Below are positions 12,743 to 29,893 of a DNA stretch of 52,973 nucleotides, one piece after another. This DNA is from a virus. Lineage: Duplodnaviria > Caudoviricetes. The position numbers and the translations under genes were made by a program. Below the pieces are notes generated by a model, which was not told the origin of the DNA, did not search any database, and worked only from the letters and a program-made list of their open reading frames with translations. Numbering within the stretch: position 1 is the first letter of the stretch; each line of letters begins with the position of its first letter. The stretch lies in IMG/VR virus record IMGVR_UViG_3300046777_001769, positions 1 to 52,973 of that record; one strand, written 5' to 3'.

Positions 12743-12996
12743 TTAGTGGTTTCTCTTGAGTGTTAGCGGGGCGGTGAAGTGTGCCCCTCATACTATTAGG
12801 ACACTTTCAAGGTGAGCTATTTTATCTGATGCGATCCTGAATGTCACTGAGGACCTGTAAGATCACCTCACGACTATCCTCACCGTTCTCCTCTAACTGT
12901 TGCATAACGTCTTGCAGTTGTGGTAGGATAGCGGTGGTTAATTGGGCAACACGTATAATCCTCATATCGCCCAAATGCTTATATTTTAGTGTTCTC

Positions 12997-13045
12997 ATTT
13001 TGTTAACATAAAGACCCGATTATTTATGCTTTATGTTAACAAAAT
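12997..13045. repeat. Perfect 17-bp inverted repeat enclosing a late-promoter core
   Basis: ATTTTGTTAACATAAAG (12997-13013) / CTTTATGTTAACAAAAT (13029-13045); the 15-nt loop contains CATAAATA on the minus strand. Confidence 0.85.
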
Positions 13046-13079
13046 AAAAACGCCTTATATGGTATAAATTGCTACCAAA

Positions 13080-13253
13080 TTACCATCTATCAGGTGTACT
13101 TAGGTCTTCAACGTAAGCATCACACTTCTCTGCAGGTTCCAGCTTAAACAACTTCTCCCAATCAATCTGATGCGGGTCGAAGTCACCGAACACTGATAGA
13201 TCTAGAGTAATCCTATAACGCTGCTTCTGTGCTTGACTGTATGCTACGGACAT
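13080..13253 (-). CDS. Hypothetical protein (57 aa)
   Basis: Hand translation MSVAYSQAQKQRYRITLDLSVFGDFDPHQIDWEKLFKLEPAEKCDAYVEDLSTPDRW; GGAG SD and promoter upstream. Confidence 0.8.
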   Translation of the reverse strand: MSVAYSQAQKQRYRITLDLSVFGDFDPHQIDWEKLFKLEPAEKCDAYVEDLSTPDRW

Positions 13254-13279
13254 AAGTGCGCTCCTGTGTGTATAGGGGT

Positions 13280-13308
13280 ACTATAAGACTTGTGTGCCTA
13301 GATGTCAA
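13280..13308 (-). promoter_or_regulatory. Sigma70-type promoter
   Basis: TTGACA-N17-TATAGT. Confidence 0.8.
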
Positions 13309-13380
13309 GGTCCTGGGGAGTATTTATGAGGGGTTGGTGGATTTATGCGGGGGGATTGTGGGGATTTTGTGACCGTGGGA

Positions 13381-13410
13381 TTGACAAAAGTGCGGTCCTT
13401 ATGTTATGCT
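13381..13410 (+). promoter_or_regulatory. Rightward sigma70-type promoter facing non-coding AT-rich DNA
   Basis: TTGACA-N18-TATGCT with TG extension; shares CTTATGTTATGCT with the leftward promoter at 11903. Confidence 0.6.
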
Positions 13411-13596
13411 CGCTAAGATCACAAGACCTCAGCACATTAAAAGGGTATAAAAAGGTCTCTAATTGATACGAATTCATATCATTATCACCTTTCAATAACA
13501 ATAATTATCAAGCATTTCATTCGAACGTTTATATTTAAATTGATATTTTTAATTGATTTTATTGTTTTTTTAACGATAAATCTACCAAAAGACATA

Positions 13597-13621
13597 AAAA
13601 AAGACCCCGTAAGTGGGGTCT
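13597..13621 (-). terminator. Intrinsic terminator closing the leftward early transcripts
   Basis: AGACCCC-N6-GGGGTCT hairpin followed by a T run on the minus strand. Confidence 0.8.
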
Positions 13622-13653
13622 GCCGAAGGCGAAGCGCAAGCGCCTATGTGTTA

Positions 13654-13890
13654 TCAATCAAGAGCTAATCTGTACCTTGCATAATCCTCTGCCTCAGATC
13701 TTTTCTTGAAACGTGCTTCTTCACCTTCAAATCTGAGTGGCAGATACCTATACTTCTTGCCTTCCTTAGTGATAACAGTTCTGGAGAATAGGTGTAATGA
13801 GTAACTACCTTCCTCAGTATATTCATCTTCTTTCTTGACTATGAAAGGGAGAACTTTGTTGTCGTTGAATGACTGTTTAGAGAGTAACAT
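13654..13890 (-). CDS. Hypothetical protein
   Basis: 78-aa ORF ending just before the terminator. Confidence 0.7.
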   Translation of the reverse strand: MLLSKQSFNDNKVLPFIVKKEDEYTEEGSYSLHLFSRTVITKEGKKYRYLPLRFEGEEARFKKRSEAEDYARYRLALD

Positions 13891-14354
13891 GATGAAATTA
13901 GTTGTTGATCAATTCAGCAGGACTTCCACATGATTTGTAGAACTCAACCATACGTTTTGCTTCCTCTAGTGTAGAGAAACTTTGCGTTCTCCATTGTTGT
14001 TGATAAGGCGTAAAGTAGCGGATTGTGAACATTTTAGTTTTGATTGTTGGAGTAAATAATGGTAAGCATCTTTTGGTAGTAGTTGTCTGCTTCTACCTCA
14101 CATTGATGAGACTGTGTTGCATCTTCGATCTCATATTGTTTCATACTCAGAGAGTGAATCACGTTGTCCAGAAGATCAGTTAGTGCTTCTACTTTTTGTG
14201 CGTCAGTCATTCTCGATTTCAGTCAAAAGTTCAGTAAATGCGTCGATTGCTGCTTGGTTGCAGTTATCATCTTTCAAACCTTGAATGTAATACTCAAGTG
14301 CTTCAATGAGCATCATTTGCTTCATTTCAGATTTGGAAATAAAATCAGTCATCA

Positions 14355-14672
14355 TCACTTAAGCACCATACCTTCAGTGAACGGAATTGTGTTGCCATTA
14401 TCAATCACAAACCATTCAAAGTCACGTTGAAAGATACGGGCATCATTTCCGTGAACTTTCAGAATAGAATTGAGACGTGATTTGGTGGTAGGAGTTTTAT
14501 ACCCACAGGTGTAAAGTTCAAGGAAGGTATCACCAATCGTTGCGATATGATTGCCATGAAGCATAACATATGAAGCATCACGTTCGGGCGAATAGGTAAC
14601 CTCCGTGTTCTTAGATTTCCAGTCTTGGCAATCACAAATTGCCTTGTTCATTTGGAGTTCGATCTTTCTCAT
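14355..14672 (-). CDS. Phage hypothetical protein
   Basis: 105 aa, LHGNHIA...GY.T.TTKSRLN motif; starts 18 nt after a repeat copy. Confidence 0.85.
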   Translation of the reverse strand: MRKIELQMNKAICDCQDWKSKNTEVTYSPERDASYVMLHGNHIATIGDTFLELYTCGYKTPTTKSRLNSILKVHGNDARIFQRDFEWFVIDNGNTIPFTEGMVLK

Positions 14673-14727
14673 GGTTGGAAGTGTTGTGGTTATACTACTA
14701 GGACACTTTGGAGGTGAGCTATTTTAA

Positions 14728-14937
14728 TCAGGCAGTGATTGCAGTCTCTAGATTAACCTCACGAGTGTCCAGGATAGCATAATCAAAACCCTCATTCTCT
14801 TCTAGATGCTTTTGATAAGCAACAGCAGTAGAGAAGCAATCAAACAGGCGAAGGGAATCGAAGTTCTGACCTTCATAATCCCAACCACCAATCACAGCAT
14901 AGACTTTAGACATTTGGGACATTTGGGAAGCGTTCAT
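14728..14937 (-). CDS. Hypothetical protein (single-gene unit between repeats)
   Basis: ORF exactly fills the interval between copies at 14691 and 14935. Confidence 0.8.
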   Translation of the reverse strand: MNASQMSQMSKVYAVIGGWDYEGQNFDSLRLFDCFSTAVAYQKHLEENEGFDYAILDTREVNLETAITA

Positions 14938-15249
14938 ACTACTAGGACACTTTGGAGGTGAGCTATTTTAATCACACTGAATCATTGGTCCTTGAACATC
15001 ACAAAACTCTAAAAGAAAGTAGTCTACTGTGATGCCAAGTTCATTTGCAAACTGTAGATTTTCCTGGTATTGTTCTTGTGTAAGAACATAGAAATCAGTC
15101 TCAATCATTGGGTGAAATAATGTCAGCTACTGTGTGCAATGTGTTGGCAGTGATGTTACGAACTCCAGGTGATAGGATCATCGCAACAATGAAAATGAGT
15201 GTAATTGTTCTCACTTTGTCAGGTGACTTGAATGTTAGTCTCTTTGCCA

Positions 15250-15462
15250 TCAGTTAATGACATCATACTGCAGAGATTTGATACACCAACCAGTGTTGTT
15301 AGTGATCACATCGGCAAGACATTCTTCGCCATCAGGTGAATCCCACAGACAAGATTTGGTCTCTTGAATGATCTCATCTTTCTCCTCTTGAGTGAGATCT
15401 TCATAGTCGAAATCAAACTCAATTTCAGTTACTTTGTAATAGTTCATTGTGGTTGTGCTCAT
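15250..15462 (-). CDS. Small acidic protein, paralog of 16633-16833
   Basis: VTEIEFDF...IT..TGWCIKS motif shared. Confidence 0.8.
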   Translation of the reverse strand: MSTTTMNYYKVTEIEFDFDYEDLTQEEKDEIIQETKSCLWDSPDGEECLADVITNNTGWCIKSLQYDVIN

Positions 15463-15492
15463 ACTACTAGGACACTTTGGAGGTGAGCTATT

Positions 15493-15681
15493 TTAACTCA
15501 ACTCGATGTTCCAGTCAACATCTGCAGTAAGATTGACCCAAAAGTGATTCTTACAGTTTGCAGAGGTGAGAAACACTTTGTCTCCGCAATGTTGCTCTAC
15601 AATACATTCCTGATTGCGGTTCATTAAGTTACAGAAACGATTGTGTGCTTTCTTACTTTTGGGTGTTACAAATGCAGTCAT
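15493..15681 (-). CDS. Hypothetical protein, related to 42787-42990
   Basis: V.PKSKKA.NRF.N.M....VEQ.....F..S.N....FW shared; its stop lies inside the repeat. Confidence 0.75.
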   Translation of the reverse strand: MTAFVTPKSKKAHNRFCNLMNRNQECIVEQHCGDKVFLTSANCKNHFWVNLTADVDWNIELS

Positions 15682-15771
15682 TCTTTGTTATTGAGGTATT
15701 GAATCAAAAGGACATTTGCTGCTCCGAAAGTATAAGCAACAAGGACAAGAATACCCGTTAGCATAATTTTA

Positions 15772-15954
15772 TCAGTTACCGAAGAAAGCATCAAACTCGT
15801 CTGCAATCTGATCAATTAGTTCATCAGTTGCATCAAGGTCAAAAAGGCAGCAAACAAAATCTACACAATCATTCAGATCTGTGTGATTGTTGCACATAAA
15901 CTCCAGAAGTGCAGGAGTGATGTCGGTTTGGAAGTCGAAAGAGGTGTTGGTCAT
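15772..15954 (-). CDS. Hypothetical acidic protein
   Basis: 60 aa; first ATG supplied by the repeat. Confidence 0.7.
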   Translation of the reverse strand: MTNTSFDFQTDITPALLEFMCNNHTDLNDCVDFVCCLFDLDATDELIDQIADEFDAFFGN

Positions 15955-16001
15955 ACTACTAGGACACTTTGGAGGTGAGCTATTTTAATTCAAAGTCAGT
16001 T

Positions 16002-16364
16002 TCAGTTACGCATCAGTGAAAGTGCTTCATCCTCGCTGATGCTACCCTCAGGCAGTTCTACAATCCGAGCACAGTCAATCGCATCAGCAAAGTTATCAAA
16101 CTGTGCAAAGGTTTTCTGATTACCACACCAGCAACCTTTGTACTCATAGAACATTGCTTCTACAGAGAATACATCTCCCTTTGTTTTAGAATCTACACTG
16201 TGCTTGATATACACTTTACCGTCATATCGTGTGTACTTATCAAACATATTGCTCTTGAAAGTACGGGCGAAATCAGCGATAGACTCAGCAGTGAGATTGA
16301 TATTCTGAGCGAACAGATTTGCGTAGTGAACAGACATTTTAGTGGTTTCAGTGGAAGTGCTCAT
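16002..16364 (-). CDS. Hypothetical protein
   Basis: 120 aa; single gene between two repeats. Confidence 0.8.
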   Translation of the reverse strand: MSTSTETTKMSVHYANLFAQNINLTAESIADFARTFKSNMFDKYTRYDGKVYIKHSVDSKTKGDVFSVEAMFYEYKGCWCGNQKTFAQFDNFADAIDCARIVELPEGSISEDEALSLMRN

Positions 16365-16632
16365 ACTACTAGGACACTTTGGAGGTGAGTAACTTTAATT
16401 GGGTGTTTATTGTGTTACACTTTTTTGAGCGAAGTTAGGAAGGGAAATCATTAGTTTTACTGAACTTTGAGTTGGTGAACTTGAACGTCGCAATACTGAG
16501 AATCTTTGTAATCCTCATTGTATTCTTGTTTCATTTCCTCTGCGCGACGATTTGCGTCTTCTTCGTTAGCATACAAACCATAAAGTTCATCGGGTTCGTA
16601 TTCATCAAGACGGGCATAAACACCGTAAACAA

Positions 16633-16833
16633 TCATTTCAGAACGTGACGATAATCAATGGATTTGATACACCAACCTGTTGCACATGTGATCTCTTCAA
16701 CTAGATCATCTTCATCATCTGCTTCCCAAATCATACCGATAGTTTCATCGGTAATGTTACTAAACTCATGCTCGGGAAAGTCATCATCTTCATCAAAATC
16801 AAACTCGATTGCAGTAACTTGGAAAAGCATCAT
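16633..16833 (-). CDS. Small acidic protein, paralog of 15250-15462
   Basis: VTAIEFDF...ITCATGWCIKSIDY. Confidence 0.8.
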   Translation of the reverse strand: MMLFQVTAIEFDFDEDDDFPEHEFSNITDETIGMIWEADDEDDLVEEITCATGWCIKSIDYRHVLK

Positions 16834-16963
16834 TTGCAGTAGTTAAGGTTTACTTGGCAGAACTGATCTGCCTGTTGTTCTTGATACTCATTGGTCGTTG
16901 CGTGTGCAATCAAACCAAAGCGAAGACCGAGTGCTAGAGTAGCAATCAAAAAAGCAATTCGCA

Positions 16964-17230
16964 TCAAACTGCACCTGCCATAAAGTTGTATTCTTGCACC
17001 AGGTTAATGTTATCACCAGTGATCACATAATCCATTGCAAGACGCTCATCAATCTCGCGTTGTGCATCTTTTTTGGTCAGACACTTTTGAGAGATGGTAT
17101 CAATACCCTTCCAAGAAAGAACCTTGAGAGTATAGTTGGAACAATCCTCAATGGGATAGAAACCAACAATCATTGTACCATCTTTAGACTGGAGAGTAGG
17201 AAACTCGATCATGGTTTGTGAAGTGCTCAT
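16964..17230 (-). CDS. Hypothetical protein
   Basis: 88 aa; begins in a repeat copy. Confidence 0.75.
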   Translation of the reverse strand: MSTSQTMIEFPTLQSKDGTMIVGFYPIEDCSNYTLKVLSWKGIDTISQKCLTKKDAQREIDERLAMDYVITGDNINLVQEYNFMAGAV

Positions 17231-17264
17231 ACTACTAGGACACTTTGGAGGTGAGCTATTTTAA

Positions 17265-17408: not shown

Positions 17409-17599
17409 AGTGTTTGAAACGGTTGTGCTTCTTTGATGTTAGAATTGAAAAACTTTTGAAAGATAGAATCAATCACAGGATACCATTCCTCGTTTGCACT
17501 TGGGTATCCACATTCTCGTGCTTGATTGAGAAACTTAAGGATGCAAGTTTCCTCATTAGCAGTGAACTCAACTCGATTGAAAGTGTAACCGTCAGTCAT
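17405..17599 (-). CDS. Hypothetical protein
   Basis: 64 aa; ATGA overlap with the next gene. Confidence 0.7.
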   Translation of the reverse strand: MTDGYTFNRVEFTANEETCILKFLNQARECGYPSANEEWYPVIDSIFQKFFNSNIKEAQPFQTL

Positions 17600-17938
17600 A
17601 CATTTTCATCTCCCATATCAAAACAACACTGCTCATAACCTTCATCATACATTGCTTGGGCAAACTCAAGAATAAGAGAAGGAGTTACTTTCCAGTTTCT
17701 AATATCATCTTCATCACGAAGACAGAATTTGAACTTTTCGGCAAGTTGTAGGATTTGTTCTTCAGTCATAATCAAACAGGGGTAACTTCAACAGAACGGA
17801 TAAGATTTGTGCGATCTTGTGCTAGATAATCATCAGCGATTTTACCACAAGATGAACGAGATTGGATGATCTTTTCTTCATACAGGTTCTCATCTTCATC
17901 AGGAACCCAATACTCAATCAGAAGGCGATAGTTTTTCA

Positions 17939-18187
17939 TCAGTAGTGTGCCTCAGAGGTGTCAAGAACTTCGCTGTACTTAGCGATACCATCATAGCAAC
18001 GCTTTGCCATTTCAGAATCACCTTCAGCAACGTAACCTTTCAGAAACTCAAAGCAGTATTTGATACGCTGCTCAGGAGTAACTTTAGCGAGTTGTTGTTG
18101 CTTACGCTCATAAGCGGCGTTGTAGGCAAACATTTCACGATCTTCGAGGGAGATGTTGTGAAACTTGCGGTCGGTAGTGTTGGTCAT
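17939..18187 (-). CDS. Hypothetical protein
   Basis: 82 aa; first ATG supplied by the repeat. Confidence 0.75.
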   Translation of the reverse strand: MTNTTDRKFHNISLEDREMFAYNAAYERKQQQLAKVTPEQRIKYCFEFLKGYVAEGDSEMAKRCYDGIAKYSEVLDTSEAHY

Positions 18188-18228
18188 ACTACTAGGACAC
18201 TTTGGAGGTGAGCTATTTTAATTGCCCG

Positions 18229-18483: not shown

Positions 18484-18740
18484 CGTGCTACAATGTCAAG
18501 AGTTTCCAACAGCATCATCGAAAGTTCCATCTGGTTCTCATCATCAACCACGGGAATGTTTGTCTCTACAAACTCACTAATCAGTTGAGCAAAAAGTTCA
18601 GTTGTGCGCTCATCTGTGAATAGAGCAGTGGCAAGTTCATTCTTGAACCCATCACGCAGAAGTTTGAGCGACTTTGTGACAGTCATTTCTTTGATTTGTT
18701 CATCGTAAGTCATTTCAGTGTCGTACATTGTGTTACTCAT
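18480..18740 (-). CDS. Hypothetical protein
   Basis: ORF-track 18480-18773; likely start MSNTMYD at 18740 (ATGA overlap). Confidence 0.7.
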   Translation of the reverse strand: MSNTMYDTEMTYDEQIKEMTVTKSLKLLRDGFKNELATALFTDERTTELFAQLISEFVETNIPVVDDENQMELSMMLLETLDIVAR

Positions 18741-19168
18741 TTTGCGTACATATATCCGGATGCCCAATCGCAATTCTCCAAAACATATTCACGATCTTTA
18801 ATCAATCGCAAATCGTAGCGAACTCCTTTGGCAGGAGATTTCCAACTGGAACTCTTATACATCTCACCAGTATTCTTGTCGATGAAGCAGTGTACTGACC
18901 TGCTACCACCACCATCAATCATCACAACTTTGTGATACTTTTTACCAGTCTCAATGGTATAATCAATGTCCGTTTTACCAGACTTGAGTTCATCAATCTT
19001 GAGAAGATGATGCTCTACACTTTCACCAAGTTCAACAGAACGCTGATGACCACGAATAGCATACTGACGATAGTTGTCTTTCAGTGCTTCAATCAGCATG
19101 TGAGTGTACTTGAGTACATTCTCTGCAATAGTTTGTTTTGCTTGTGCTTGCATTGTAGTTGTGCTCAT
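18737..19168 (-). CDS. Phage hypothetical protein
   Basis: GKKYHKV...SVHCFIDK.TG..YK..SWK.PAKGVRY motif familiar from T4-like phages. Confidence 0.85.
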   Translation of the reverse strand: MSTTTMQAQAKQTIAENVLKYTHMLIEALKDNYRQYAIRGHQRSVELGESVEHHLLKIDELKSGKTDIDYTIETGKKYHKVVMIDGGGSRSVHCFIDKNTGEMYKSSSWKSPAKGVRYDLRLIKDREYVLENCDWASGYMYAK

Positions 19169-19202
19169 ACTACTAGGACACTTTGGAGGTGAGCTATTTT
19201 AA

Positions 19203-20123
19203 TCATCCCCAACTCTTTGCCATCGTGAAGTTGGCATGAGAGAATGTCTCACGATCCACTACCTTGAACGATCCAAACTTGTTGTGGATGACATAACCTT
19301 CGTGGAAGGAATCAATACCATTGATAGAACATTCAATGTCGTCAAGTTCGTGAATGAACAGGAACAAATCATCCTTGATAGACTTCACCAACTTCCACAA
19401 ACGGATCAAGTTCTTATCACAATCACATTTTTCTGCAATTTCATCTTCATCAATGACCCTTTGCTCCCTGATGCAGGCATTTAACTCTTTTTTGATTTGT
19501 GATGCCTTGCGATCAGACACAAACTCACATAGGGTGCTCATTTGCTTGGCAAACTTACACACATCTTCCAAATCTTCACGATAAGGGTTCAGAGACACCT
19601 CAGGTTGCACAAACAGAACAGTCTTAGTGCTCACAAACTTGCTAGTGATAGGATGTGCTACCATCTCAGGCAGTTTGTCACCAGTGTAGTAAGTATGAGG
19701 GCAAATGATAATCTCCTGCCGCACAATCTCAGGGAACTTGTAGGTAATCGTATTGGGCATAAATGTATCCAACCCTTTACCAAAACCAATCCAATCACCC
19801 TGATACACTTTCTTAGTGCGAGGCAGAAACTCCAGGCAATAGATAAGGATTTGTGCTACGCGAGGTTGACCACCAAAATGCTCAAATACATCATCCTCAT
19901 TATAGCAAAGGCGAATCTTTTGCTTGTTAAATGCTGCTTTGGTGCAAACAAAAAACTTACCATTCTCAGGATTAGTGCCCCACACAACAGCAGGAGCACC
20001 ATCCATCTTTACGCTGATAAAACTATCAACTTCAGAGAACCAATCAAGAACAGAAAGATCACCATTCAAGATACAATCTTCGGGGTGTTCAATGTGTTTG
20101 TTTTGCATTGGTTTCTTACTCAT
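19203..20123 (-). CDS. DUF6267-like protein with KxDG motif
   Basis: HIEHPED, VKMDGAPAVVWG, FFVCTK, VYQGD, PNTITY, HEGYV, KVVDR..FS.ANF. Confidence 0.75.
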   Translation of the reverse strand: MSKKPMQNKHIEHPEDCILNGDLSVLDWFSEVDSFISVKMDGAPAVVWGTNPENGKFFVCTKAAFNKQKIRLCYNEDDVFEHFGGQPRVAQILIYCLEFLPRTKKVYQGDWIGFGKGLDTFMPNTITYKFPEIVRQEIIICPHTYYTGDKLPEMVAHPITSKFVSTKTVLFVQPEVSLNPYREDLEDVCKFAKQMSTLCEFVSDRKASQIKKELNACIREQRVIDEDEIAEKCDCDKNLIRLWKLVKSIKDDLFLFIHELDDIECSINGIDSFHEGYVIHNKFGSFKVVDRETFSHANFTMAKSWG

Positions 20124-20161
20124 ACTACTAGGACAGTTTGGAGGTGAGCTATTTTATTAGA

Positions 20162-20407: not shown

Positions 20408-20434
20408 AAAAGCAAGTGCTCCTGTGGCAGTTTA

Positions 20435-20704
20435 TCAAGCGGAACGACGCTTGCGAGTTTTGGTAACAGTAGCAGGTACAACTTGAGGTTGATCCACTAC
20501 AACAGCAGGAGAAAGTTGTGCTTTACTGAACTCAATCAGCATGTCAACAAACTTCAGAAACTGAAGAGTTGCAGAGCGAACTTTCTCACTTCCATTGTTC
20601 TCATTGAAGGAACGAATGAAGAATTGAGATACACCGACAACAACAGCAGCGATAGTAGCAATGTTGCGGACGAGAGTATCAACGAACTTCCAGTAAAAAG
20701 TCAT
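20435..20704 (-). CDS. Hypothetical membrane-anchored protein
   Basis: IATIAAVVVGV hydrophobic segment, basic tail. Confidence 0.7.
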   Translation of the reverse strand: MTFYWKFVDTLVRNIATIAAVVVGVSQFFIRSFNENNGSEKVRSATLQFLKFVDMLIEFSKAQLSPAVVVDQPQVVPATVTKTRKRRSA

Positions 20705-20772
20705 GGTTTAGGTTAGAAACTTCTGTGAGGTGCGACCCTCACACTACTAGGACACTTTGGAGGTGAGCTATT

Positions 20773-21579
20773 TTAATTTGTCTCGTAGTTTGTAATGTAA
20801 AGATGCTTCACTTTTGCTCCACTGTGATCCTTATCCTTACCAAATCGTTGGGCATAAGCAAAGTCCTTTTCAATAATGTTAAAGTCTTTGTAACTCTCAC
20901 GATAAAACTCATGGTCAGAATGAATAATCATCCATTTTGCTTTTGTTGCTTTCAGGCAACCTAAAAGGTCTTCATGTAGACTTGAACCACCATCGCCCTG
21001 AGTGTAACCAAGTCGCTCAAGATAGGGTGGATCAATGAACACAAAGTCATCTGCATTGATTTCACCAAACAGATCCACAAATGACCCGTATCTGAATACA
21101 CATCTCTTACTCAAGAAATTGTGATGATCAGGAGACAAATTACAAGAAAATCGTTTATAGTGACCAAAGGGCACATTAAACTCACCTTTGGCATTGTATC
21201 TTTCCATTCCCGAAAAGCACAACTGTCGCACAATAATGTATGATAATGCTCTCTGAAGTGGATCTACACAATCCCACGGTTGATTGATTGCCTCTCGTGC
21301 AGCATAAAACTCCTTCTCAAGATCATCATGCTCCAGTCCTTTGATACAGTCAACCTTCACCTGCAGTTGAGGATAAAGTTCCTCATTTGCAACCACAGAG
21401 TATAAGTTAATGACATCGCGGTTGATGTCACTCATCAGAGCAGGATAACCCAGCCCAAATGATACTGCAGCACCTCCACAGAAAGGTTCTACAACCCTTG
21501 AAAACTGTGAAGGTGCTAGTTGTTTGATGAGTGGCAATTCTTTACTCTTGCCACCCTGGTATTTTACGATTGGTTTCAT
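20773..21579 (-). CDS. DNA N6-adenine methyltransferase (Dam/D12 class)
   Basis: KYQGGK, VEPFCGGAAV (motif I), RYNAKGEFNVPFG, FVFIDPPY (motif IV). Confidence 0.93.
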   Translation of the reverse strand: MKPIVKYQGGKSKELPLIKQLAPSQFSRVVEPFCGGAAVSFGLGYPALMSDINRDVINLYSVVANEELYPQLQVKVDCIKGLEHDDLEKEFYAAREAINQPWDCVDPLQRALSYIIVRQLCFSGMERYNAKGEFNVPFGHYKRFSCNLSPDHHNFLSKRCVFRYGSFVDLFGEINADDFVFIDPPYLERLGYTQGDGGSSLHEDLLGCLKATKAKWMIIHSDHEFYRESYKDFNIIEKDFAYAQRFGKDKDHSGAKVKHLYITNYETN

Positions 21580-21610: not shown

Positions 21611-22171
21611 TCAAAGACCCATTTCTTCAAGGATAGGAGCAACAACTTCACGGAGGAAGGTAAAGTATTCTTCGGAAGTGAAAGGTGCTTGAATGGTCTC
21701 AATCATCCAATTTACACCATAAACTTCCACACCCTTGTTGTTATACTTGGTTTTTTCTTTCTTGCTAACTTCTGCAACAACGGGGACAAAATACCCCGAC
21801 TTTACATCAACACCAAGAACACTGGTAATGTCCTTGATCTTCTCGTTAGATGCACGAACTTTCTCACTATCAAAGTTGAGATTGCACTTGCTTTCGAGAT
21901 ACCAAGTCTCATCAATTCGGAACAGATGATCAATTTGACGAGTGCGACCATTCACATCAATCAGATTGCTTTCTTCAATGAGGTTTTGTGCCACCAGACT
22001 GTCACTAATAACAGTATTCCAGAATTGCTCAATTCGCTCACCGAAAGCAATCAAAATAGACTGCGGAGAAACACGATCATCAAGACCAAGTGCCTGAAGA
22101 ATGTAAGATTCAGTCTTCTTAGGTTTGATAGAAAGAACCAACGGAAGCAGGTTGTCTTCTAGGTAGGTCAT
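21611..22171 (-). CDS. Putative PD-(D/E)XK restriction-like endonuclease
   Basis: FGERIE helix, then RQIDHLF...WYLESKCN (D...ExK); adjacent to the methyltransferase. Confidence 0.65.
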   Translation of the reverse strand: MTYLEDNLLPLVLSIKPKKTESYILQALGLDDRVSPQSILIAFGERIEQFWNTVISDSLVAQNLIEESNLIDVNGRTRQIDHLFRIDETWYLESKCNLNFDSEKVRASNEKIKDITSVLGVDVKSGYFVPVVAEVSKKEKTKYNNKGVEVYGVNWMIETIQAPFTSEEYFTFLREVVAPILEEMGL

Positions 22172-22216
22172 TTGTTGGATGCTTATACTATGAGTACAGT
22201 TTGGAGGTGATCTATT

Positions 22217-22456
22217 TTAATTCACAGGAAGTTTTGCCATTGACTTACCTTTTTTGTGATCGGTGATATATTTTCTTGCTGAACTTTCAGTCCTACAAAG
22301 TTTATCAAGTTGTTGACCATTGTGAATGATGAGATACTGATTTCCATAAGGAATGGCAGCATAAGTATCCTTGAACATCGTAAATGCTTCTTTCATTATA
22401 CTTTCAAAAAAATAGTGGTTTTGATTGCAGCGGATGACCCATAGGGTCTGTGACAT
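22217..22456 (-). CDS. Hypothetical protein (start probably at MKEAF, 22398)
   Basis: YAAIPYGNQYLIIHNGQQL; stop inside a repeat. Confidence 0.65.
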   Translation of the reverse strand: MSQTLWVIRCNQNHYFFESIMKEAFTMFKDTYAAIPYGNQYLIIHNGQQLDKLCRTESSARKYITDHKKGKSMAKLPVN

Positions 22457-22504: not shown

Positions 22505-23749
22505 TCACCGCCGCACCACACTGATAGCGGGTTCGCCCTTCTGGAAGATCGTATCAACCACAGACTGCACAGCGCGTGCGGTGCTGATACCAACCTTGCT
22601 GTAGACTGGGATGCAAACCAGACCGAACGATTTGGTATACTGACCCAGGTTGCCAGGTTGGATACTGCCATCGCGCAGACCTTTGGCATCATCGTGATGC
22701 AAACGGATGCAACGTCCGATCGTCTGACTGATGCCAATGAAGTCCATGTTACGCAGGAAAAGAACTGCTTCCAGACCGCTCACATTGATACCTTCAGCGA
22801 GGATACTGTGGTGTAGAACAACGAATTTCTTATCGTTATCCTTACCCCAGGCAGATAGGGTGTCGAAGAATACTTCACGGTTCACTTTCTTGCCATCAAT
22901 CACAGCACCAGTCTTGGCAGTAATATACATCCAAGAGTAACCACGTTGCTCTAGTTCAAAGCAGAAATCAGTTTCAGACACAAGAGACACGATTTGCTTG
23001 GTTGCCTTAGCACAAATCAGAATCTTACCGACCTTGTTGTCATCAATGGTTTCCAGCAGGTTAGCAGCATCGCGGTCGAAGTTAGTCTGCTTACCTTGTA
23101 CCATTTCCAGTTGCTTGACGATCACTTTAGGAGGAACAATGTACCCACCTTCGACTAACTCAGGAGCTGGGACTTTGCAGATTACCTGACCATAAACAGC
23201 AGCATCATTCATCCCAGGTTTGCCAGTAGCGAGGGAATGTTTGGGAGTTGCAGTAAAGAAGTAGCAGCGACGTGCGTTAGCAGCAAAGTGCTCAGTTGCA
23301 GGGAAAAAGTGACGCTGAACACTGTTATGTGCCTCATCAAAGTAGATCGTATCCACATCAATTCCTGCCACTTGAAGACGCGACAGAGAGTTGTAAGTGG
23401 TTACAATCAAGCGATGATTGTCAGCATTGGCATCAACCCAGCGACGAATCTCATAGGGACGAGTAGAAGACTCGTGATGCGTCTCTCCCGAGTGGATATG
23501 GAAAACCTTTGCGTTGGTAATAAACTCCAGGAACTCAGAAGACAGTTGCTCAGCGAGCAAGATGCGGGGAGCAACAACAACAATGGTCTGCGGAGTTTCA
23601 GACTGCAACTCACGCAGAGCATCTGAAATCATAGTCAAAGTTTTTCCCGCTCCAGTTGGTTTAATCAACTGTCCTTTATTATGCTTCGCCATAGCATCAA
23701 GACCACGTTGCTGATGTGGGCGAAGTTGGATTTGCATTGGAATCATCAT
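22505..23749 (-). CDS. Superfamily 2 DEAH helicase (type III Res-like)
   Basis: LRPHQ, PTGAGKT (Walker A), DEAH, TAT, LAEGINV, QTIGRCIR. Confidence 0.92.
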   Translation of the reverse strand: MMIPMQIQLRPHQQRGLDAMAKHNKGQLIKPTGAGKTLTMISDALRELQSETPQTIVVVAPRILLAEQLSSEFLEFITNAKVFHIHSGETHHESSTRPYEIRRWVDANADNHRLIVTTYNSLSRLQVAGIDVDTIYFDEAHNSVQRHFFPATEHFAANARRCYFFTATPKHSLATGKPGMNDAAVYGQVICKVPAPELVEGGYIVPPKVIVKQLEMVQGKQTNFDRDAANLLETIDDNKVGKILICAKATKQIVSLVSETDFCFELEQRGYSWMYITAKTGAVIDGKKVNREVFFDTLSAWGKDNDKKFVVLHHSILAEGINVSGLEAVLFLRNMDFIGISQTIGRCIRLHHDDAKGLRDGSIQPGNLGQYTKSFGLVCIPVYSKVGISTARAVQSVVDTIFQKGEPAISVVRR

Positions 23750-23781
23750 CTAGTATTAGGACACTTCAGAGGTGAGTAACT

Positions 23782-23979
23782 TTAATTCGCCTTCTTATAG
23801 TAGTTCAGTTTATCAATCACACCTTGCATTGTAGCACGATTGTACCCATTCGCAAAGGATGGACTTCTCTCAGTTTCAGGATTAGAACTGAAATCAACAT
23901 TCTTGGAGACATTAACACCCTCTTGGAGAAGGCGAATGACATCATCAAAGACAAAATCAGGGATTTGAATGTAATTCAT
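23782..23979 (-). CDS. Hypothetical protein
   Basis: C-terminal part (MNYIQIPD) of ORF-track 23782-24135; the upstream part crosses a promoter element. Confidence 0.65.
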   Translation of the reverse strand: MNYIQIPDFVFDDVIRLLQEGVNVSKNVDFSSNPETERSPSFANGYNRATMQGVIDKLNYYKKAN

Positions 23980-24063: not shown

Positions 24064-24274
24064 CGAACATTTCATCAAACAACCAATCACCAGAACGCTC
24101 TTTTTCTTCCCATACTTTGTTAGCGTTCTCAGCAATCATTGCTTGCTCAATCTTCATATCAAGGGCAGATTTGGTCATGAACCAGTTACCGTTGCGGTCT
24201 TGCCAAAGCATAATGTTTTGAGTGTTGTCCTTATACTACTAGGACACTTTGGAGGTGAGTAACTTTAATTGGTC

Positions 24275-24952
24275 TCAACTCCCTGATGCTTGTGCTGCTG
24301 CTTTTGCTTTTGCTCTCATACGAACAGCAACAGCATTACTCCACTTTCCACCATCTGCTTCGTATTCTCTACGCATTTGTGCAAGAATCTCAGTAGCAGA
24401 TTTCTTAGTTTTTTGTGCTGCTTGAGTTTTCTCTCTATTTCTAGCAGCATCTCTCTCCTGACGTGTCATAGGAGCACCAGTTTCTGTTTTCCACTGTCTG
24501 CGTGGTTTTGCTGCTGGTTTCTTTTCTTGTTGTGGTTTAGCTTGAGCGATTGCTTGTGATGCAGTCTTTGGTTGTTCTTTACCACTTTCTTTTGCTTTAC
24601 GCTCAAGATATGCTTTACGCTGTCTCTCTTTAGCAGTCATTGCAGCACTTCCTTGAGTTCCTGCAGTTCCAGGTTTCAATGCTGTTGCACCTGCTCCTCT
24701 TCCAGGTGCAGGTGCTGAAGATCCTCTTTGCTGACCAACATCTTTGCGTGTCTTATAAGCAACTGGTTCAGTTTTACCACCACCAACTGCTTTTACTCTG
24801 CGTCTTTCAGGAGCAGTCTTTTTGCGCTCTTTACCTATTCTACCACCTGCACCAGTTTTGATAATGGAAGCACCACCGCCCCAACCAAGTTTACTAGCAG
24901 CATCAGCATCAGATGCTTCGCAAAGTGACATAAACTCCTGAAAACTACGCAT
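24275..24952 (-). CDS. Basic low-complexity protein, putative internal head protein
   Basis: N-terminus MRSFQEFMSLCE resembles the T4 capsid targeting sequence MKTYQEFIAE; CTAAATA late core near 24979. Confidence 0.65.
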   Translation of the reverse strand: MRSFQEFMSLCEASDADAASKLGWGGGASIIKTGAGGRIGKERKKTAPERRRVKAVGGGKTEPVAYKTRKDVGQQRGSSAPAPGRGAGATALKPGTAGTQGSAAMTAKERQRKAYLERKAKESGKEQPKTASQAIAQAKPQQEKKPAAKPRRQWKTETGAPMTRQERDAARNREKTQAAQKTKKSATEILAQMRREYEADGGKWSNAVAVRMRAKAKAAAQASGS

Positions 24953-25186: not shown

Positions 25187-25378
25187 TCAGGATACAGTAG
25201 AATTGTGATCGGTGGGGGTTTCTGTAGACACTTGCTTAGGTGTCACACGAACATTGTAAGGAGAATAATAAAACCGCTTGAAGGCAGTAACAACAATAAC
25301 AAACGCTGAAATGACACCAACCAAACCAAGGATGGTAACAGCATCGCCTCCAAAAGTATAAGTTTCAGGCATAATCAA
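25187..25378 (-). CDS. Small membrane protein
   Basis: One hydrophobic helix VTILGLVGVISAFVIVVTAF. Confidence 0.7.
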   Translation of the reverse strand: MIMPETYTFGGDAVTILGLVGVISAFVIVVTAFKRFYYSPYNVRVTPKQVSTETPTDHNSTVS

Positions 25379-25592
25379 TAATCATAGTTTCCGTTAAGGT
25401 ATTCATTCACATCAAACTTGGTGTGAACATTGGGGAAAAGTCGGTCATCATCTTCCCCATCAGAGAGAAACTCATTCATCTCTTCAACAAAATCAAAGGT
25501 AGAAAAGTCTTCAATTTGAATGTCGTCGAAGCAGTCCATAATTTGTTTCTTGCCTACATTACTAGGACACTTTGAAGGTGAGCTATTTTAAT

Positions 25593-26171
25593 TCAACGAG
25601 AAAGTATTGCTCTCATTTCTGCTCTTTTCTGTGCTTGTTGTGCTCTTGCCTCCGCGCCAAGTTCTTGATGAACATGTTTAATTTGTGCAGTTTTTTGTGC
25701 TGCTTGTCGCATTGCCACTTGCTTACTATAAAGATTTGGCTTCATATGCGGAGTTTGCTCTGTTTGCAACTCTCTCTTAATTTCCCTTTTTAGAGTTTCT
25801 CTTTCGGAAGATGCTTGTTGCTTCTCTCTTTGAGATGCTTTATAGTCTGCAACTTTTTGTTTATATGCTTGCATTTGCCCAAATTGTCTTTGTCGAAGAT
25901 CTTGTCTTCTTTGTTCTAGATCTTCATCAATCTTTTTGACAGATTTTGCTAGTTTCTTTATTCTATCAGTTACTGCCTTGCCTCCACTACGCTTCACAAT
26001 CAACTTATCAACTTCTTTCTTTTTCGGTTTACCCATTGGACCATCATAACGCTGAAGAGTATAGGAAATATTCCCTTCACTATCTCTCTTGTAAGTTCCA
26101 GGAACTGCATGTGGAGGAGTATCAGGTTTCTTACCCTCGCAGATTTGATAAAACTCTCTGAATGTTAGCAT
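25593..26171 (-). CDS. Basic coiled-coil protein, putative internal head protein
   Basis: N-terminus MLTFREFYQICE (CTS-like). Confidence 0.65.
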   Translation of the reverse strand: MLTFREFYQICEGKKPDTPPHAVPGTYKRDSEGNISYTLQRYDGPMGKPKKKEVDKLIVKRSGGKAVTDRIKKLAKSVKKIDEDLEQRRQDLRQRQFGQMQAYKQKVADYKASQREKQQASSERETLKREIKRELQTEQTPHMKPNLYSKQVAMRQAAQKTAQIKHVHQELGAEARAQQAQKRAEMRAILSR

Positions 26172-26172
26172 T

Positions 26173-26819
26173 TTATCCTAATTCTCCCATTGCTTTTTGC
26201 TTACGAAGTTTCTTGGGGTTCTTCGTCTTGTCTGCAGAGAAGTTATCATCATTCTCATTATCAGGATCTACAGCACTACGATGTCTCGTGCGTCTTTCTT
26301 CATCATCCAGGTTTGAACGCATTCTCTTTGCTTCATCTGGAGAATATCTTCTACCACTGTTATACCATTCCTTACCTACATGACCTCTCTTCACAGCATC
26401 AGCACGAGTAGCAGACGCTTTTGCTTTTTTACGATTTGCCTTGAAATCTTTCATCGTCATACCTTCAGCAATCATAATACTCTCTCTCCACTCTTCACTC
26501 ATATTCACCATAATTGCAGATGCTGCCTCTTCAGTTTCAGCATATCCTTCATCAAGAAGATGTGAGAGGATGATGTCGTAAATATCTACTTGTTCTTTTT
26601 GCTCTTTTCTTTTTTCAATCTTTTTCATTCCTCGTTTAGCACCCTCAAATCTTTTAGATAGAGTTTTTTTATCTCCTCTAACAAATGCTCCCACAGCAGA
26701 AGCAGCATTTTTGCCGCATAAGATTGCGTTTTTTGTGGAGTATCTAATACTTCATCAAGTTGATTACTAACAACTTCCAAATATGCTTCTTGAAGATTGC
26801 GAATGTCTTGAGCGTCCAT
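26173..26819 (-). pseudogene. Late gene split by a 1-nt frameshift (ORFs 26625-26819 and 26173-26694)
   Basis: Adding one A to the A5 run at 26708-26712 joins MDAQDIRNLQEAYLEV...YAAK to NAASAVGAFVRGDK...; TATAAATA at 26840-26847. May be an assembly error. Confidence 0.6.
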
Positions 26820-26848
26820 GTTACGAATAACTTTTTAGATATTTATAT

Positions 26849-27139
26849 TCACTCAAACTCAAGGGTCTTATTTGAGTATTTGACTGATGGAGTTTCATAC
26901 TCTGGAATAGTAGAAGTTTCCACAAATACTTCAATCTTCGTCTCATCATTCCAGTGACGAATTACACCAGCGACAATAAAAGCATTGGTAATCAAATACG
27001 TTGCAAAAATAAAAGTTCGGATAAGGGCAACCTTATCCGATTCACGATCACATTTACTTGCTTTTTCACCTAATGCTTTCGCCCACCAACGCCAAGCACT
27101 CTTGTTCTTCTTCATATCTTGATTTTCTTGATCTAACAT
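26849..27139 (-). CDS. Membrane protein
   Basis: WRWWAKALGEKA..D.VA.IRT + hydrophobic helix + IRHW. Confidence 0.75.
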   Translation of the reverse strand: MLDQENQDMKKNKSAWRWWAKALGEKASKCDRESDKVALIRTFIFATYLITNAFIVAGVIRHWNDETKIEVFVETSTIPEYETPSVKYSNKTLEFE

Positions 27140-27341
27140 ACTTCAACTGTTTCCAATCTTCTTTGTAACAAACTACAAGCAATCTTTCATTCTTATGAAT
27201 AGGACAACATTCATAGTTTTCTTCATCTTTAGGGCGAACAACATATTCAATCGTTATGTATTCATCATCCCTAAAATAAACCCAACCCTCAACACCTTTT
27301 GTCCATTCAACATAATCATTGACTTGTGGTTTGTATGTCAT
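27066..27341 (-). CDS. Hypothetical protein
   Basis: MTYKPQVNDYVEW..EGWVYF; ATGA overlap with the upstream gene. Confidence 0.7.
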   Translation of the reverse strand: MTYKPQVNDYVEWTKGVEGWVYFRDDEYITIEYVVRPKDEENYECCPIHKNERLLVVCYKEDWKQLKYVRSRKSRYEEEQECLALVGESIR

Positions 27342-27697
27342 ACAAAGAACGCATCTAATGGGGACTGCTTGATGGGCATTGTAGTGTAATTTCGCGTTTC
27401 CTTGATATTTACACAAGCACCAATGGTTTTACTATTGATGGGGGCGAAATACTCTCTGGTTTTGGTATTGTAGAAGGAGTGTATAGTTCTGGTTGGAACA
27501 CCATTATTATAGACAAACTTGCGAGTGTTGCATAACCAAATACTGACAACATTTCGCTTGAACTCTTCACACTCATAATAGTATCCTTCAGGGGCAGAAT
27601 AGGGGAGAGGCGGAACTTCAACAGTCATAGAACTTGTCACGCGACATGTACTCAATTTGTTTTTGCAGTTGTGAGATTTCGTGTTCTTGTTCTGCAA
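27338..27697 (-). CDS. Hypothetical protein (start probably at MTVEVP, 27628)
   Basis: APEGYYY...VSIWL...FYNTKT..YFAPINSK. Confidence 0.7.
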   Translation of the reverse strand: MQNKNTKSHNCKNKLSTCRVTSSMTVEVPPLPYSAPEGYYYECEEFKRNVVSIWLCNTRKFVYNNGVPTRTIHSFYNTKTREYFAPINSKTIGACVNIKETRNYTTMPIKQSPLDAFFV

Positions 27698-27784
27698 TTT
27701 TACTTTGCAGTTGTTCGATACGTTCTTGATACTGTTTCTTCAAATCAAACACCATCTTATTGGTGTGAGTAACGTGATTAGTCA

Positions 27785-28027
27785 TCAGGTTGTAAAGGAT
27801 TCGACTACGCCAGATTCTACATCCTCGGCAAGAGCATAAGTTCTTGCGCTTAACACATTTTCACGAAGAGTTGTGTAATGCTGCTCATAGAAGTTCCCAT
27901 CATCTTCTGCAGAAATCAGATCGAAACACTCATTGTCGTTTTCAGCAATAACATTCCAAAGTCCACCATATTCACTGGAGGGAAAAGGGATGTAATGGTC
28001 AACGATGTAAAGAAACTTTTGTGCCAT
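27785..28027 (-). CDS. Hypothetical protein
   Basis: 80 aa; TTGACG-N17-TACAAT promoter at 28051-28079. Confidence 0.75.
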   Translation of the reverse strand: MAQKFLYIVDHYIPFPSSEYGGLWNVIAENDNECFDLISAEDDGNFYEQHYTTLRENVLSARTYALAEDVESGVVESFTT

Positions 28028-28564
28028 TTTTATTCGTAAATTACCTCTTAATTGTAGTAGTTTTCGTCGCCTTCGTCAAGATTATTTTGGTCAGCAGCAA
28101 AGATAAATGCTGCACCGATTGTAAGTAGAGAACCCAGTCCCATTCCAAGTAGAAAAGTCATCAATAAAACTCCGCCAAGTAGTAGTCAACGGGAACTTCA
28201 AGTTTAGCTGCTTCCCGTTCAACTTCTTTCCAGAACTCTTCTGCTACTTTGTTCATTTCTGCTTGTTTAATGAGATCACGAAGTTTTTTAGAAATCATTT
28301 TAGTTAAAATGCGATTCGTTTTTTGGTCGAATTACCTTAAAATAGTAGGTAAGTATCAATAATACTAATACTACCAACATAAGGTAGGTAAAGACACCAA
28401 CTGCAAGCGTCATTTAATCTCAGCAGAGGGAGGTTTCTTTAGATTATCTATCGCTTTAGAACGATAGTAGGCATCATAAAGACTTTCATCACGCTGGATT
28501 AGAAAGATATTCCAACCAAGAATGACTGCAAAACCAATCAATCCAGCAACAATGTATTTGCGGT

Positions 28565-28969
28565 TCATTTGTTCATTTGAAGTGTAGGGACAGGCATACC
28601 ACCTTCGGTAGGAACGTAGATCGTCACGTTACCTTTATTAGATCCTTCTTCCAGACCAGTGATGTAAAGATACTGGAGATACTCACGGTTATCTTTCAGA
28701 CTATCACCGATAATTTGGTTTGCTTTGGCAACACCAGTAGCACGGATGATTTCAGCATCAGCAAGTTGCTGAGCACTATCTTTCTTTGCTTGTGCTTCCA
28801 ACACTGCTACCTGTCGGGTATATTCTGCTTTCTGAAGTTCTGCTTTACCAGCAAGAGATTGTTGCCATACGTTGTATTGAGGACCACCAATAAAGAGGAT
28901 ACCACCAATGAAGAACACACCAGCAATAAAGAGAATAGCAGGAGGGTCAATAAATCCGTTTTGTTTCAT
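28565..28969 (-). CDS. Membrane protein with band-7/SPFH-like coiled coil
   Basis: TM helix, then EAQAK..A...ADAEIIRA.GVAKANQIIG.SL...YLQY. Confidence 0.7.
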   Translation of the reverse strand: MKQNGFIDPPAILFIAGVFFIGGILFIGGPQYNVWQQSLAGKAELQKAEYTRQVAVLEAQAKKDSAQQLADAEIIRATGVAKANQIIGDSLKDNREYLQYLYITGLEEGSNKGNVTIYVPTEGGMPVPTLQMNK

Positions 28970-29169
28970 TTTGTAGATACTCCAGAGTTCTTAAAGATAA
29001 GATTGGCAAGAGCGATGATAGCAAAGTTCTGCCAGAAGGTCAAAGATACATTAAACCAAGACAAAATAAGTCCAAGCAACCATGCCTCAAAGAATAGACT
29101 TACTGTTACAATAATAACAGCACCAAAGACAACACCAAGAGCAGTAGGAATATCAGTAGTAGGTTTCAT
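28966..29169 (-). CDS. Small membrane protein
   Basis: Mostly hydrophobic 67 aa. Confidence 0.7.
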   Translation of the reverse strand: MKPTTDIPTALGVVFGAVIIVTVSLFFEAWLLGLILSWFNVSLTFWQNFAIIALANLIFKNSGVSTK

Positions 29170-29172
29170 AGA

Positions 29173-29583
29173 TCAAACAGCAAGAGCAGCAGAGGGGATT
29201 TCAACTTCTTTTACAAGATCGGGGTGAACATCACCGTGAAGATCATAACACACCCACTCACCATTGGTAAAGAGGTAAGCATATTCTTCACCATTACACA
29301 GATACTCATTCAGGTTAGCATCATGGCGAGGAGGGCAATCTTCACCACGCTGAGAGTAATACTCGGGTCCATAAACACCCTTTACAGCACTATCATCCCA
29401 GCGATCATCAGTCCAGCAGGAACTCATATCGCCACCATCAATCAGTTCTTCAGCAAGAGAACGTGAGTTGTAGTGAGTGTTCAGAATACGACCCAACCAT
29501 TCGGGATAACCATCCCAGTGGTGATACGCAGAAAGAATAGAACCATCTTTGAGTTCAAGACCAATTCGTGCTCGGGTTGCCAT
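29173..29583 (-). CDS. Phage hypothetical protein
   Basis: MATRARIG...YHHWDGYP..LG..L...EEYAYLF motif; follows the repeat at 29598. Confidence 0.85.
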   Translation of the reverse strand: MATRARIGLELKDGSILSAYHHWDGYPEWLGRILNTHYNSRSLAEELIDGGDMSSCWTDDRWDDSAVKGVYGPEYYSQRGEDCPPRHDANLNEYLCNGEEYAYLFTNGEWVCYDLHGDVHPDLVKEVEIPSAALAV

Positions 29584-29893
29584 TTGAGTGTTGTGCTTAC
29601 ATTACTAGAACACTTTGGAGGTGAGCTATTTTAATTCAACCACCCTTTTCTCTCAAACTACGCACAAGATACTCAGTAAACTCTTCCATTTTTTCTGGAA
29701 CTACAGCAGCAGGTCGCTCATTGATTGCATTTTTGAGTGCTGTCATTTCTTTCCATTCTTCATCAGTAAGTTTTTGATGTTTGCCCGATGAAAGAGTCAT
29801 AAATTTGCTCCCGTGATTATGTCCATATCCTAACAGTATTTAAGGGAGATGTGCTGTTTCTTAATATTCTCTTTGGGATTGATTAACAGTTCT

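Follow-up and report, generated by a model that had tools for sequence, protein, structure and literature searches.

A reiterated element at gene-unit boundaries of a freshwater T4-like cyanophage: a probable promoter, leader and start-codon cassette that may double as recombination homology

Introduction

Why does a phage carry the same short sequence, always in one orientation, at sixteen gene boundaries, and what does the sequence do there? The question is raised by the IMG/VR record IMGVR_UViG_3300046777_001769, a fragment from a freshwater T4-like cyanomyovirus (Kyanoviridae) with an estimated completeness of 20%. The entire record, 52,973 bases, was analysed and is called the window. Between positions 12789 and 29634, a 37-base repeat, called the element below, separates small gene units at their stop and start codons. 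A first-pass annotation had suggested that the element is both a promoter and a recombination site for reordering gene modules. Our analysis points to a reiterated promoter, leader and start-codon cassette, similar to the promoter-early stem-loop (PeSL) cassettes of T4-type phages, that doubles as homology for recombination; we assign this reading a probability of about 0.6.

Results

Sixteen co-oriented copies punctuate the gene array

The minus strand holds every long open reading frame (ORF) in the window. Read in gene direction, the element is accordingly the reverse complement of the sequence first described. Positions are numbered on the gene strand, so that the TTAA end occupies 1-4. 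A repeat search recovered the 16 co-oriented copies at the limits first reported (12789-29634), and the start-to-start spacings of 244 to 4043 bases agree with the reported unit sizes of about 0.2 to 4.0 kb. The 37-base units span from 29598-29634, the first in the direction of transcription, to 12789-12825, the last. A 24-base core with at most three mismatches matched 14 times, compared to none in 100 dinucleotide-preserving shuffles, while a 20-base core with up to five substitutions picked out precisely the 16 copies and no further one in the window. Rfam and tRNA searches gave no match.

The junctions between element and genes were also as first described. Four minus-strand ORFs (ending at 15493, 20773, 22217 and 23782) use the element's TAA as their stop codon, three others (ending at 14728, 17265 and 19203) stop directly against it, and eight (at 14937, 15462, 15954, 16364, 17230, 18187, 19168 and 20123) start at its ATG. 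The copies are listed in the order of transcription; the left and right variants are described further below.

Copy 1: 29598-29634, minus; first transcribed, right variant without ATG, gene start about 18 nt downstream
Copy 2: 25555-25591, minus; right variant without ATG
Copy 3: 24232-24268, minus; GTTAC left variant
Copy 4: 23749-23785, minus; most diverged (63% identity to the reference copy), GTTAC left variant, precedes the helicase gene
Copy 5: 22184-22220, minus; precedes the unit of the phrog_26553 and methyltransferase genes
Copy 6: 20740-20776, minus; GTG replaces ATG, and a short GC inverted repeat (20700-20740) replaces the A/C-rich leader
Copy 7: 20121-20157, minus; precedes the DUF6267 gene, ATG in frame, second ATG 15 nt downstream
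Copy 8: 19166-19202, minus; DUF6267/DUF7717 junction, where Bellamy has a sigma-70-like promoter repeat
Copy 9: 18185-18221, minus; no nearby start except its ATG
Copy 10: 17228-17264, minus; 94% identity to the reference copy
Copy 11: 16362-16398, minus; 'foreign' GTTAC left variant, heads the mobile single-gene unit 16002-16364
Copy 12: 15952-15988, minus; no nearby start except its ATG
Copy 13: 15460-15496, minus
Copy 14: 14935-14971, minus; reference copy of the repeat family
Copy 15: 14691-14727, minus; ATA replaces ATG
Copy 16: 12789-12825, minus; last and diverged, a GC inverted repeat (12760-12790) replaces the A/C-rich leader

The element has a fixed anatomy and belongs to a family

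The element begins at or just past the stop codon of the preceding gene, whose TAA falls at positions 2-4. Its upstream half, from about position 6 to 17, differs by clade, AAAG at 19-22 is invariant, and TAGTAT occupies 31-36. Two hexamers resemble a -10 box, (T/C)AAAGT at 18-23 and the TAGTAT at 31-36. An ATG at 35-37, in the same frame as the TAA at 2-4, is present in about 59% of copies, and the leader that follows the element is A/C-rich (A 38%, C 36%, G 11%, T 15%).

A search for the exact 20-base core gave 70 stretches from 62 further contigs of uncultured viruses. When as many as five substitutions were tolerated, the window and these 70 loci contain 437 copies, all co-oriented with genes and on one strand only in each locus. 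Among the 346 distinct copies with flanks (window included), positions -1 to 41 carry about 1-2 bits each and form a conserved block of about 43 bases, within which positions 10-25 are almost invariant. Conservation falls beyond position 41 and is almost nil upstream of the block. The upstream reading frame ends most often at the TAA of positions 2-4 (146 copies) or 2-3 bases before the element (104 copies).

By gp6, the closest isolates are the Kyanoviridae S-SM2 (76% at the amino acid level) and Bellamy (74%). A blastn search found the window's exact version of the repeat in no GenBank phage isolate; cultured carriers were reached via the S-SM2 version and local pattern searches. Three cultured phages have versions that have diverged yet can still be aligned. 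The 11 copies in the syntenic region of S-SM2 match position for position in the downstream half, while their upstream half contains a G-run. About 13 copies in SynMITS9220M01 combine a window-type upstream half with an S-SM2-like downstream half, and the 13 copies in P-TIM68 are richer in AT. The upstream half therefore sorts by clade, with GTTACTCACC in the window and SynMITS9220M01, the G-run in S-SM2 and GTTAGTTACC in P-TIM68. All these copies point forward and are found only at 42.7-57.1 kb in S-SM2, 36.3-50.0 kb in SynMITS9220M01 and 47.1-56.1 kb in P-TIM68. Each cultured carrier thus concentrates 10-13 copies in 9-15 kb of its 190-197 kb genome, in one early-type region before the baseplate genes. 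A search of the Bellamy genome returned no copy of the element.

The element's ATG is under a reading-frame constraint

Of 322 distinct copies with sufficient downstream sequence, 194 have the ATG. The downstream ORF (at least 150 nt) is in frame with that ATG in 166 of 192 cases, compared to a spread of 53/20/48 over the three frames for 121 copies that lack it. Where another ATG follows the element's own by no more than 36 nt, the two share a frame in 103 of 114 cases, and +15 is the commonest distance. Among 142 copies that lack the ATG, the next one downstream mostly comes after 14-21 nt and respects no particular frame. S-SM2 and SynMITS9220M01 begin their DUF6267 gene at the element's ATG; the homologous methionine in the window is the second ATG. 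Because of this frame constraint, the element must be present in the mRNA and its ATG must be a start codon or frame-locked to one.

A promoter inside the element is the best-supported reading

The element sits where a promoter would sit, between stop and start and co-oriented with the genes. The region that bears it matches the clustered early genes that a cited passage describes for cyanophages. We propose that the element heads each small gene unit of a variable early-type region in a group of Kyanoviridae and is most likely a promoter, inside which the host RNA polymerase would begin transcription. Our preferred start is near position 30, driven from the hexamer at 18-23, and the transcript would carry the element's ATG and a short unstructured leader. 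Overlaps of 1-4 bases with the next gene are frequent within units and would permit translational coupling.

Both TAnnnT-like hexamers persist from clade to clade: the one at 31-36 reads TAGTAT, TAGTGT or TAATGT, while the hexamer at 18-23 reads CAAAGT in the window clade, TAAAGT in SynMITS9220M01, TAAAGC/T in S-SM2 and TAAATT in P-TIM68. A useful comparison comes from Bellamy and S-SCSM2R, which carry an unrelated repeat composed of a GC stem-loop, TG, TATATT or TATTAT, a shared 11-mer, an A/C-rich leader and an ATG. It has copies at 8489, 11036, 17701 and 18712 of the Bellamy stretch (L081) and five copies in S-SCSM2R (L083), and it has the appearance of a genuine PeSL-type cassette of marine cyanophages. 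Two of the Bellamy repeats precede homologues of the window genes 29173-29583 and 18737-19168, and in the window each of these two genes has an element in front of it. The -10-to-ATG spacing is 22-32 nt in Bellamy, compared to 26-32 nt from the 18-23 hexamer to the second ATG in the element. In P-TIM68, 7 of 13 copies have an AAGGA 8 nt before the ATG. We therefore prefer the 18-23 hexamer, which keeps the ATG in the transcript, reproduces the Bellamy-type spacing and places the P-TIM68 AAGGA inside the leader.

The first-pass annotation had argued that 37 nt of identity exceeds what a promoter needs. That argument fails, as a promoter, a leader and a start codon together fill a block of the conserved length, about 43 bases.

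Several observations weigh against a promoter. A canonical -35 is missing: no excess of TTGACA-like hexamers is seen 16-18 nt upstream of the left hexamer, the sequences 17 nt upstream of either candidate -10 are poor -35 matches, and the element has no TG extension. Position 18, the first base of the preferred hexamer, is C in 70% and T in only 21% of window-clade copies. The two candidate hexamers are indistinguishable, and a start after 31-36 would drop the element's ATG from the transcript. A plain sigma-70 promoter would not normally be near-invariant between -35 and -10, and the concerted evolution of the copies (see below) could also reflect selection by a co-evolving binding factor. 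A simple promoter scan returned 45 sites where 40.7 were expected; it paired a -35-like hexamer with the element's left end in 6 of 16 copies.

Other known boxes were considered and set aside. The T4 late promoter box TATAAAT(A) bears only a loose likeness to the left end, which is gone in S-SM2, and the Pho and NtcA boxes, with consensus sequences as quoted in the literature, gave no match by eye. No terminator-like hairpin abuts any copy, which we count in favor of a promoter. The two strongest terminator-like hairpins of the region (13602-13621 and 27017-27040, both minus) lie inside the two longest units, away from elements.

A purely RNA-level role could explain part of the data

The element could instead act only as RNA, as an intercistronic translation-start or standby site, a regulator-binding site or a processing site in long early transcripts that have no promoter here. 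It exactly fills the gap from stop to start, and its frame constraint shows that it is transcribed and that ribosomes meet its ATG. The lack of a canonical -35 and of terminators between units would also be expected. Furthermore, the central three pairs of its dyad covary, with CGC/GCG in S-SM2 and CAC/GTG in the window; roughly half of the S-SM2 copies show G-T intermediates. Such covariation would fit pairing in RNA.

The structural evidence is less favorable. The imperfect dyad described in the first-pass annotation, TAG-ct-CAC-N7-GTG-tc-CTA, is present in the window variant, but its outer arm is absent from the relatives' commonest variant (T at position 8 and A at position 9 each occur in 82% of the 346 copies). 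The minimum free energy RNA folds of three window copies have z-scores of -0.34, +0.19 and -0.39, no better than shuffles, and the same is true of the S-SM2 version, whose GC stem of 7 pairs is interrupted by a mismatch in the middle. P-TIM68 does not keep the inner pairing. Consequently, the dyad does not account for the element's conservation. The distance to the start codon also varies (0 nt, 14-21 nt, or 17-20 nt with its own AAGGA in P-TIM68), which makes a fixed ribosome-binding geometry unlikely, and an evident sigma-70-type repeat occupies the orthologous Bellamy junctions. Weighing both sides, we consider a role in RNA alone to be unlikely. The element also contains CACCTCC, which we take to be identical to the anti-Shine-Dalgarno core of the 16S rRNA; the S-SM2 and P-TIM68 versions do not contain it, and the match is therefore probably incidental.

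An operator would need a factor that the candidates do not supply

Alternatively, the element could chiefly be the operator of a phage-encoded, sequence-specific DNA-binding protein that switches the region, with the upstream half as its recognition site. The near-invariance of positions 10-25 goes beyond what RNA polymerase contacts explain, the upstream half is clade-specific while the downstream half is common to all versions, and variants are uniform inside each genome. According to the cited portion of a review, cyanomyoviruses have neither motA nor asiA, and their control of early and middle genes is unclear. Yet gene conversion explains the uniformity within genomes equally well, and no candidate factor was found. 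An 80-aa protein (27785-28027) is encoded in S-SM2, SynMITS9220M01 and P-TIM68 and is absent from Bellamy, but it is also present in the element-less S-SCSM2R, which has the Bellamy-type repeat. A 225-aa protein (24275-24952) is found in S-SM2 and SynMITS9220M01 and not in Bellamy. Neither protein matched a known DNA-binding family. An operator as the element's chief role is, in our estimate, decidedly unlikely.

The promoter and operator readings could also be combined into a dedicated regulon of a group of cyanomyoviruses. Here, a putative phage factor would read the upstream half in place of -35 recognition, as a counterpart of MotA, the downstream half would be the polymerase and leader module, and recombination between copies would keep the regulon coherent while its cargo turns over. 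We offer this arrangement tentatively and regard it as improbable.

Copies evolve in concert and units move between neighborhoods

The left end of the element has two variants, GTTAC and ATAGC, that differ at three positions. All 76 ATAGC copies lie in 16 loci that hold only 11 GTTAC copies, whereas the loci outside those 16 have 314 GTTAC copies and zero ATAGC copies. Both variants occur at orthologous junctions, for example before DUF6267 (7 versus 28). The variants therefore sort by genome and not by position, showing that copies are homogenised within a lineage. All four combinations of left and right variants exist, in 233, 39, 39 and 25 copies.

We compared gene order using simple ATG-start ORF picks and families from single-linkage blastp. 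The gene-family strings have a collinear backbone with variable slots, and units are reordered at elements. In particular, the single-gene unit 16002-16364 adjoins different units in four related contigs (L026, L054, L061 and L064). The homology of the moved unit starts 1-9 bases before position 1 of its element; in four of five contigs it extends about 40 bases into the following element and stops there. In the window, this unit bears the GTTAC variant amid an ATAGC array, and it is missing from two contigs of the same ATAGC lineage (L019/L037). This pattern fits a cassette imported by a crossover at the element's AT-rich left end.

The proposal that gains, losses and changes of order break exactly at the element holds only in part. 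Whole units are gained, lost and reordered with homology that ends at the outer element edges, but breakpoints are not element-specific. Neighbor conservation was scored throughout at junctions with at least three informative contigs. In the window, the 15 element junctions score 0.31, compared to 0.62 at 14 junctions outside the array (p = 0.049). Two further counts speak against specificity for the element. Inside the array, the 32 element-less junctions have a conservation of 0.48, which does not differ significantly from 0.31 (p = 0.17), and across all contigs a difference of 0.25 versus 0.41 per instance is gone after de-duplication (p = 0.2). Breakpoints are thus only weakly enriched at elements.

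No recombinase was visible to the first-pass annotation, and profile searches agree: neither PF00589 nor PF00239 matched in the window or in the complete element-bearing genomes S-SM2 and SynMITS9220M01, while the same profiles detected 14/14 and 12/14 control genomes, respectively. Since a tyrosine or serine recombinase is found neither in the window nor in two complete carriers, homologous recombination by the phage itself is the simplest driver. As a side effect of reiteration, it would use the direct near-identities of about 40 bases as crossover points, and these crossovers would homogenise the copies and insert, delete or reorder whole units. It is very improbable that the element is the dedicated site of a site-specific, integron-like cassette recombination system: it does bound single genes or small groups and units do move, but these recombinase families are missing, the site forms no stable hairpin (RNA folding parameters), it bears a start codon and a leader, and numerous breakpoints lie elsewhere.

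Four public runs were examined as assembled contigs. The DNA contigs end inside the repeats, which is an assembly effect. The RNA-library run contained 7% of the sampled words, and its contigs, none of which spans an element, are 90-95% alike and therefore come from relatives. In one run, two contig joints link copies (16401/24294 and 24064/16358) with short sides and extra letters; these may be a relative or a mis-assembly.

Genomic setting and cargo of the units

The array is a small-gene block upstream of the baseplate genes, which identify the phage:

1-6903, minus: gp7-like baseplate wedge protein, >2,300 aa, running off the contig end, with a YHYH domain at residues 1212-1323
6908-8836, minus: gp6 baseplate wedge protein, located downstream of the array and diagnostic of a T4-like cyanomyovirus
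8837-9238, minus: gp25 homologue, assigned by homology

At least half of the sampled array words are present in 19 DNA runs from 15 studies, all labeled as freshwater, lake-water or aquatic metagenomes. The cargo is mixed. The methyltransferase and the helicase named in the first-pass annotation were both recovered by family matches, and its 'nuclease' has one candidate:

22505-23749, minus: superfamily-2 DNA helicase (family match)
21611-22171, minus: phrog_26553 protein, a family of unknown function and the candidate for the 'nuclease'
20773-21579, minus: D12-class N6-adenine DNA methyltransferase (family match)
19203-20123, minus: DUF6267 protein, single-gene unit (family match)
18737-19168, minus: DUF7717 protein (family match)
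16002-16364, minus: 120-aa protein without a family match, single-gene unit with varying neighborhoods in relatives
14355-14672, minus: Kyanoviridae Gp96-family protein

Just upstream of the array, a homing-endonuclease-like gene (phrog_314; 31864-32592, minus) breaks an otherwise syntenic block and has no counterpart in the related contigs. Further upstream, two genes (47078-47752 and 50363-52228, both minus) consist of 13-16 tandem units of about 147 nt (49 aa) each and probably encode fibre or surface proteins rich in repeats; one product, of 621 aa, matches phrog_19111, a family of unknown function. One gene junction inside a unit (17591-17628, 38 nt) is 97% identical to positions 9260-9297 of S-PM2, which fall within the S-PM2 'ORFanage', a region that the cited section of PMC4503421 connects to freshwater phages.

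Two other cyanophages have repeats of their own. In S-B05 (L085), five genes are followed by a 14-mer (2076, 3434, 4727, 8066 and 9757) that begins at or just past their stop codons; it leaves 9-13 nt to the next ATG, precedes tail-fibre-like genes and resembles a late-promoter box. In the freshwater cyanophage S-SRM01 (L086), the 10-mer TCTCGACGAG occurs 11 times in three tight intergenic clusters (17836-17996, 20430-20518 and 23173-23271).

Discussion

The element is highly conserved and readily recognised; it marks unit boundaries, bears putative expression signals and shows traces of recombination between copies. It therefore offers a handle on the turnover of cyanophage variable regions and on the timing of early and middle genes, which the cited portion of the review leaves unresolved for T4-like cyanophages that lack MotA and AsiA. 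The proposal is directly testable because P-TIM68, S-SM2 and SynMITS9220M01 are cultured carriers. If the promoter activity is real, the element would be a compact natural expression cassette for picocyanobacteria, and would serve as a marker when early regions and genuine start codons are annotated in cyanophage contigs from metagenomes.

Comparison with known systems

Our literature searches, which covered neither supplements nor the study of Syn9 promoters by Doron et al. (2016), returned no description of the element. Its features can be placed beside five known kinds of repeat.

Integron attC sites are repeats that bound single-gene cassettes in one orientation. The element differs from them in having no integrase, no folded hairpin site (RNA parameters) and its own expression signals.

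The stoperators of Cluster A mycobacteriophages are likewise numerous, asymmetric and placed in short intergenic gaps, with one orientation relative to transcription (cited sections of PMC9283540 and PMC3203893). They are 13-bp sites at which the immunity repressor of a temperate phage halts elongation (PMC9283540), whereas the element belongs to a T4-like phage of lytic type in which no integrase was found and no search for a repressor was made.

The start-associated sequences of Cluster K mycobacteriophages, as described in the cited part of PMC3203893, resemble the element more closely. They are asymmetric, have a single orientation and are confined to the non-structural part of the genome. 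They lie directly before mostly ATG starts of unrelated gene families, sometimes with the upstream stop codon inside, and they have a group-specific extension, defined by subcluster there and by the clade-specific upstream half here. The Cluster K repeat is 13 bp long and holds a ribosome-binding AGGAG 3-7 bp before the start (PMC3203893). In contrast, the gene strand of the element has no AGGAG, and the start lies inside the element or 14-21 nt beyond it.

Reiterated intergenic repeats are also found in halovirus HF2, where repeats of 29 and 58 bp carry promoters (cited section of PMC8707807). That virus and its promoters are archaeal, the repeat sequences are unrelated to the element, and the section makes no claim of cassette shuffling.

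PeSLs were described in the T4-type phages RB49/phi1, T4/PST and KVP40/nt-1 as conserved, promoter-bearing linkers for modular shuffling in hyperplastic regions, and PeSL mini-circles have been demonstrated (PMC2839356 and PMC4122927, in the sections cited). As far as these sections describe them, PeSLs share with the element several properties: they are short conserved cassettes in intergenic gaps of T4-like hyperplastic regions, co-oriented with the genes and ending at a start codon; they are denser where gene content is variable and are tied, in the element's case by a weak enrichment, to insertions, deletions and replacements; and they are thought to act via phage recombination that needs less than 50 bp of homology. 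According to the cited section of the S-PM2 study, PeSLs are too few to explain the variable region of that phage (PMC4503421). Compared to the PeSLs in these sources, the element has no stem-loop terminator in the window clade, no near-consensus -35 and no Shine-Dalgarno sequence, is far more identical between copies and across phages, and has its ATG inside the conserved block. Because it lacks the stem-loop and its putative promoter does not follow the sigma-70 consensus, we do not count the element as a PeSL and instead describe it as a PeSL-like cassette.

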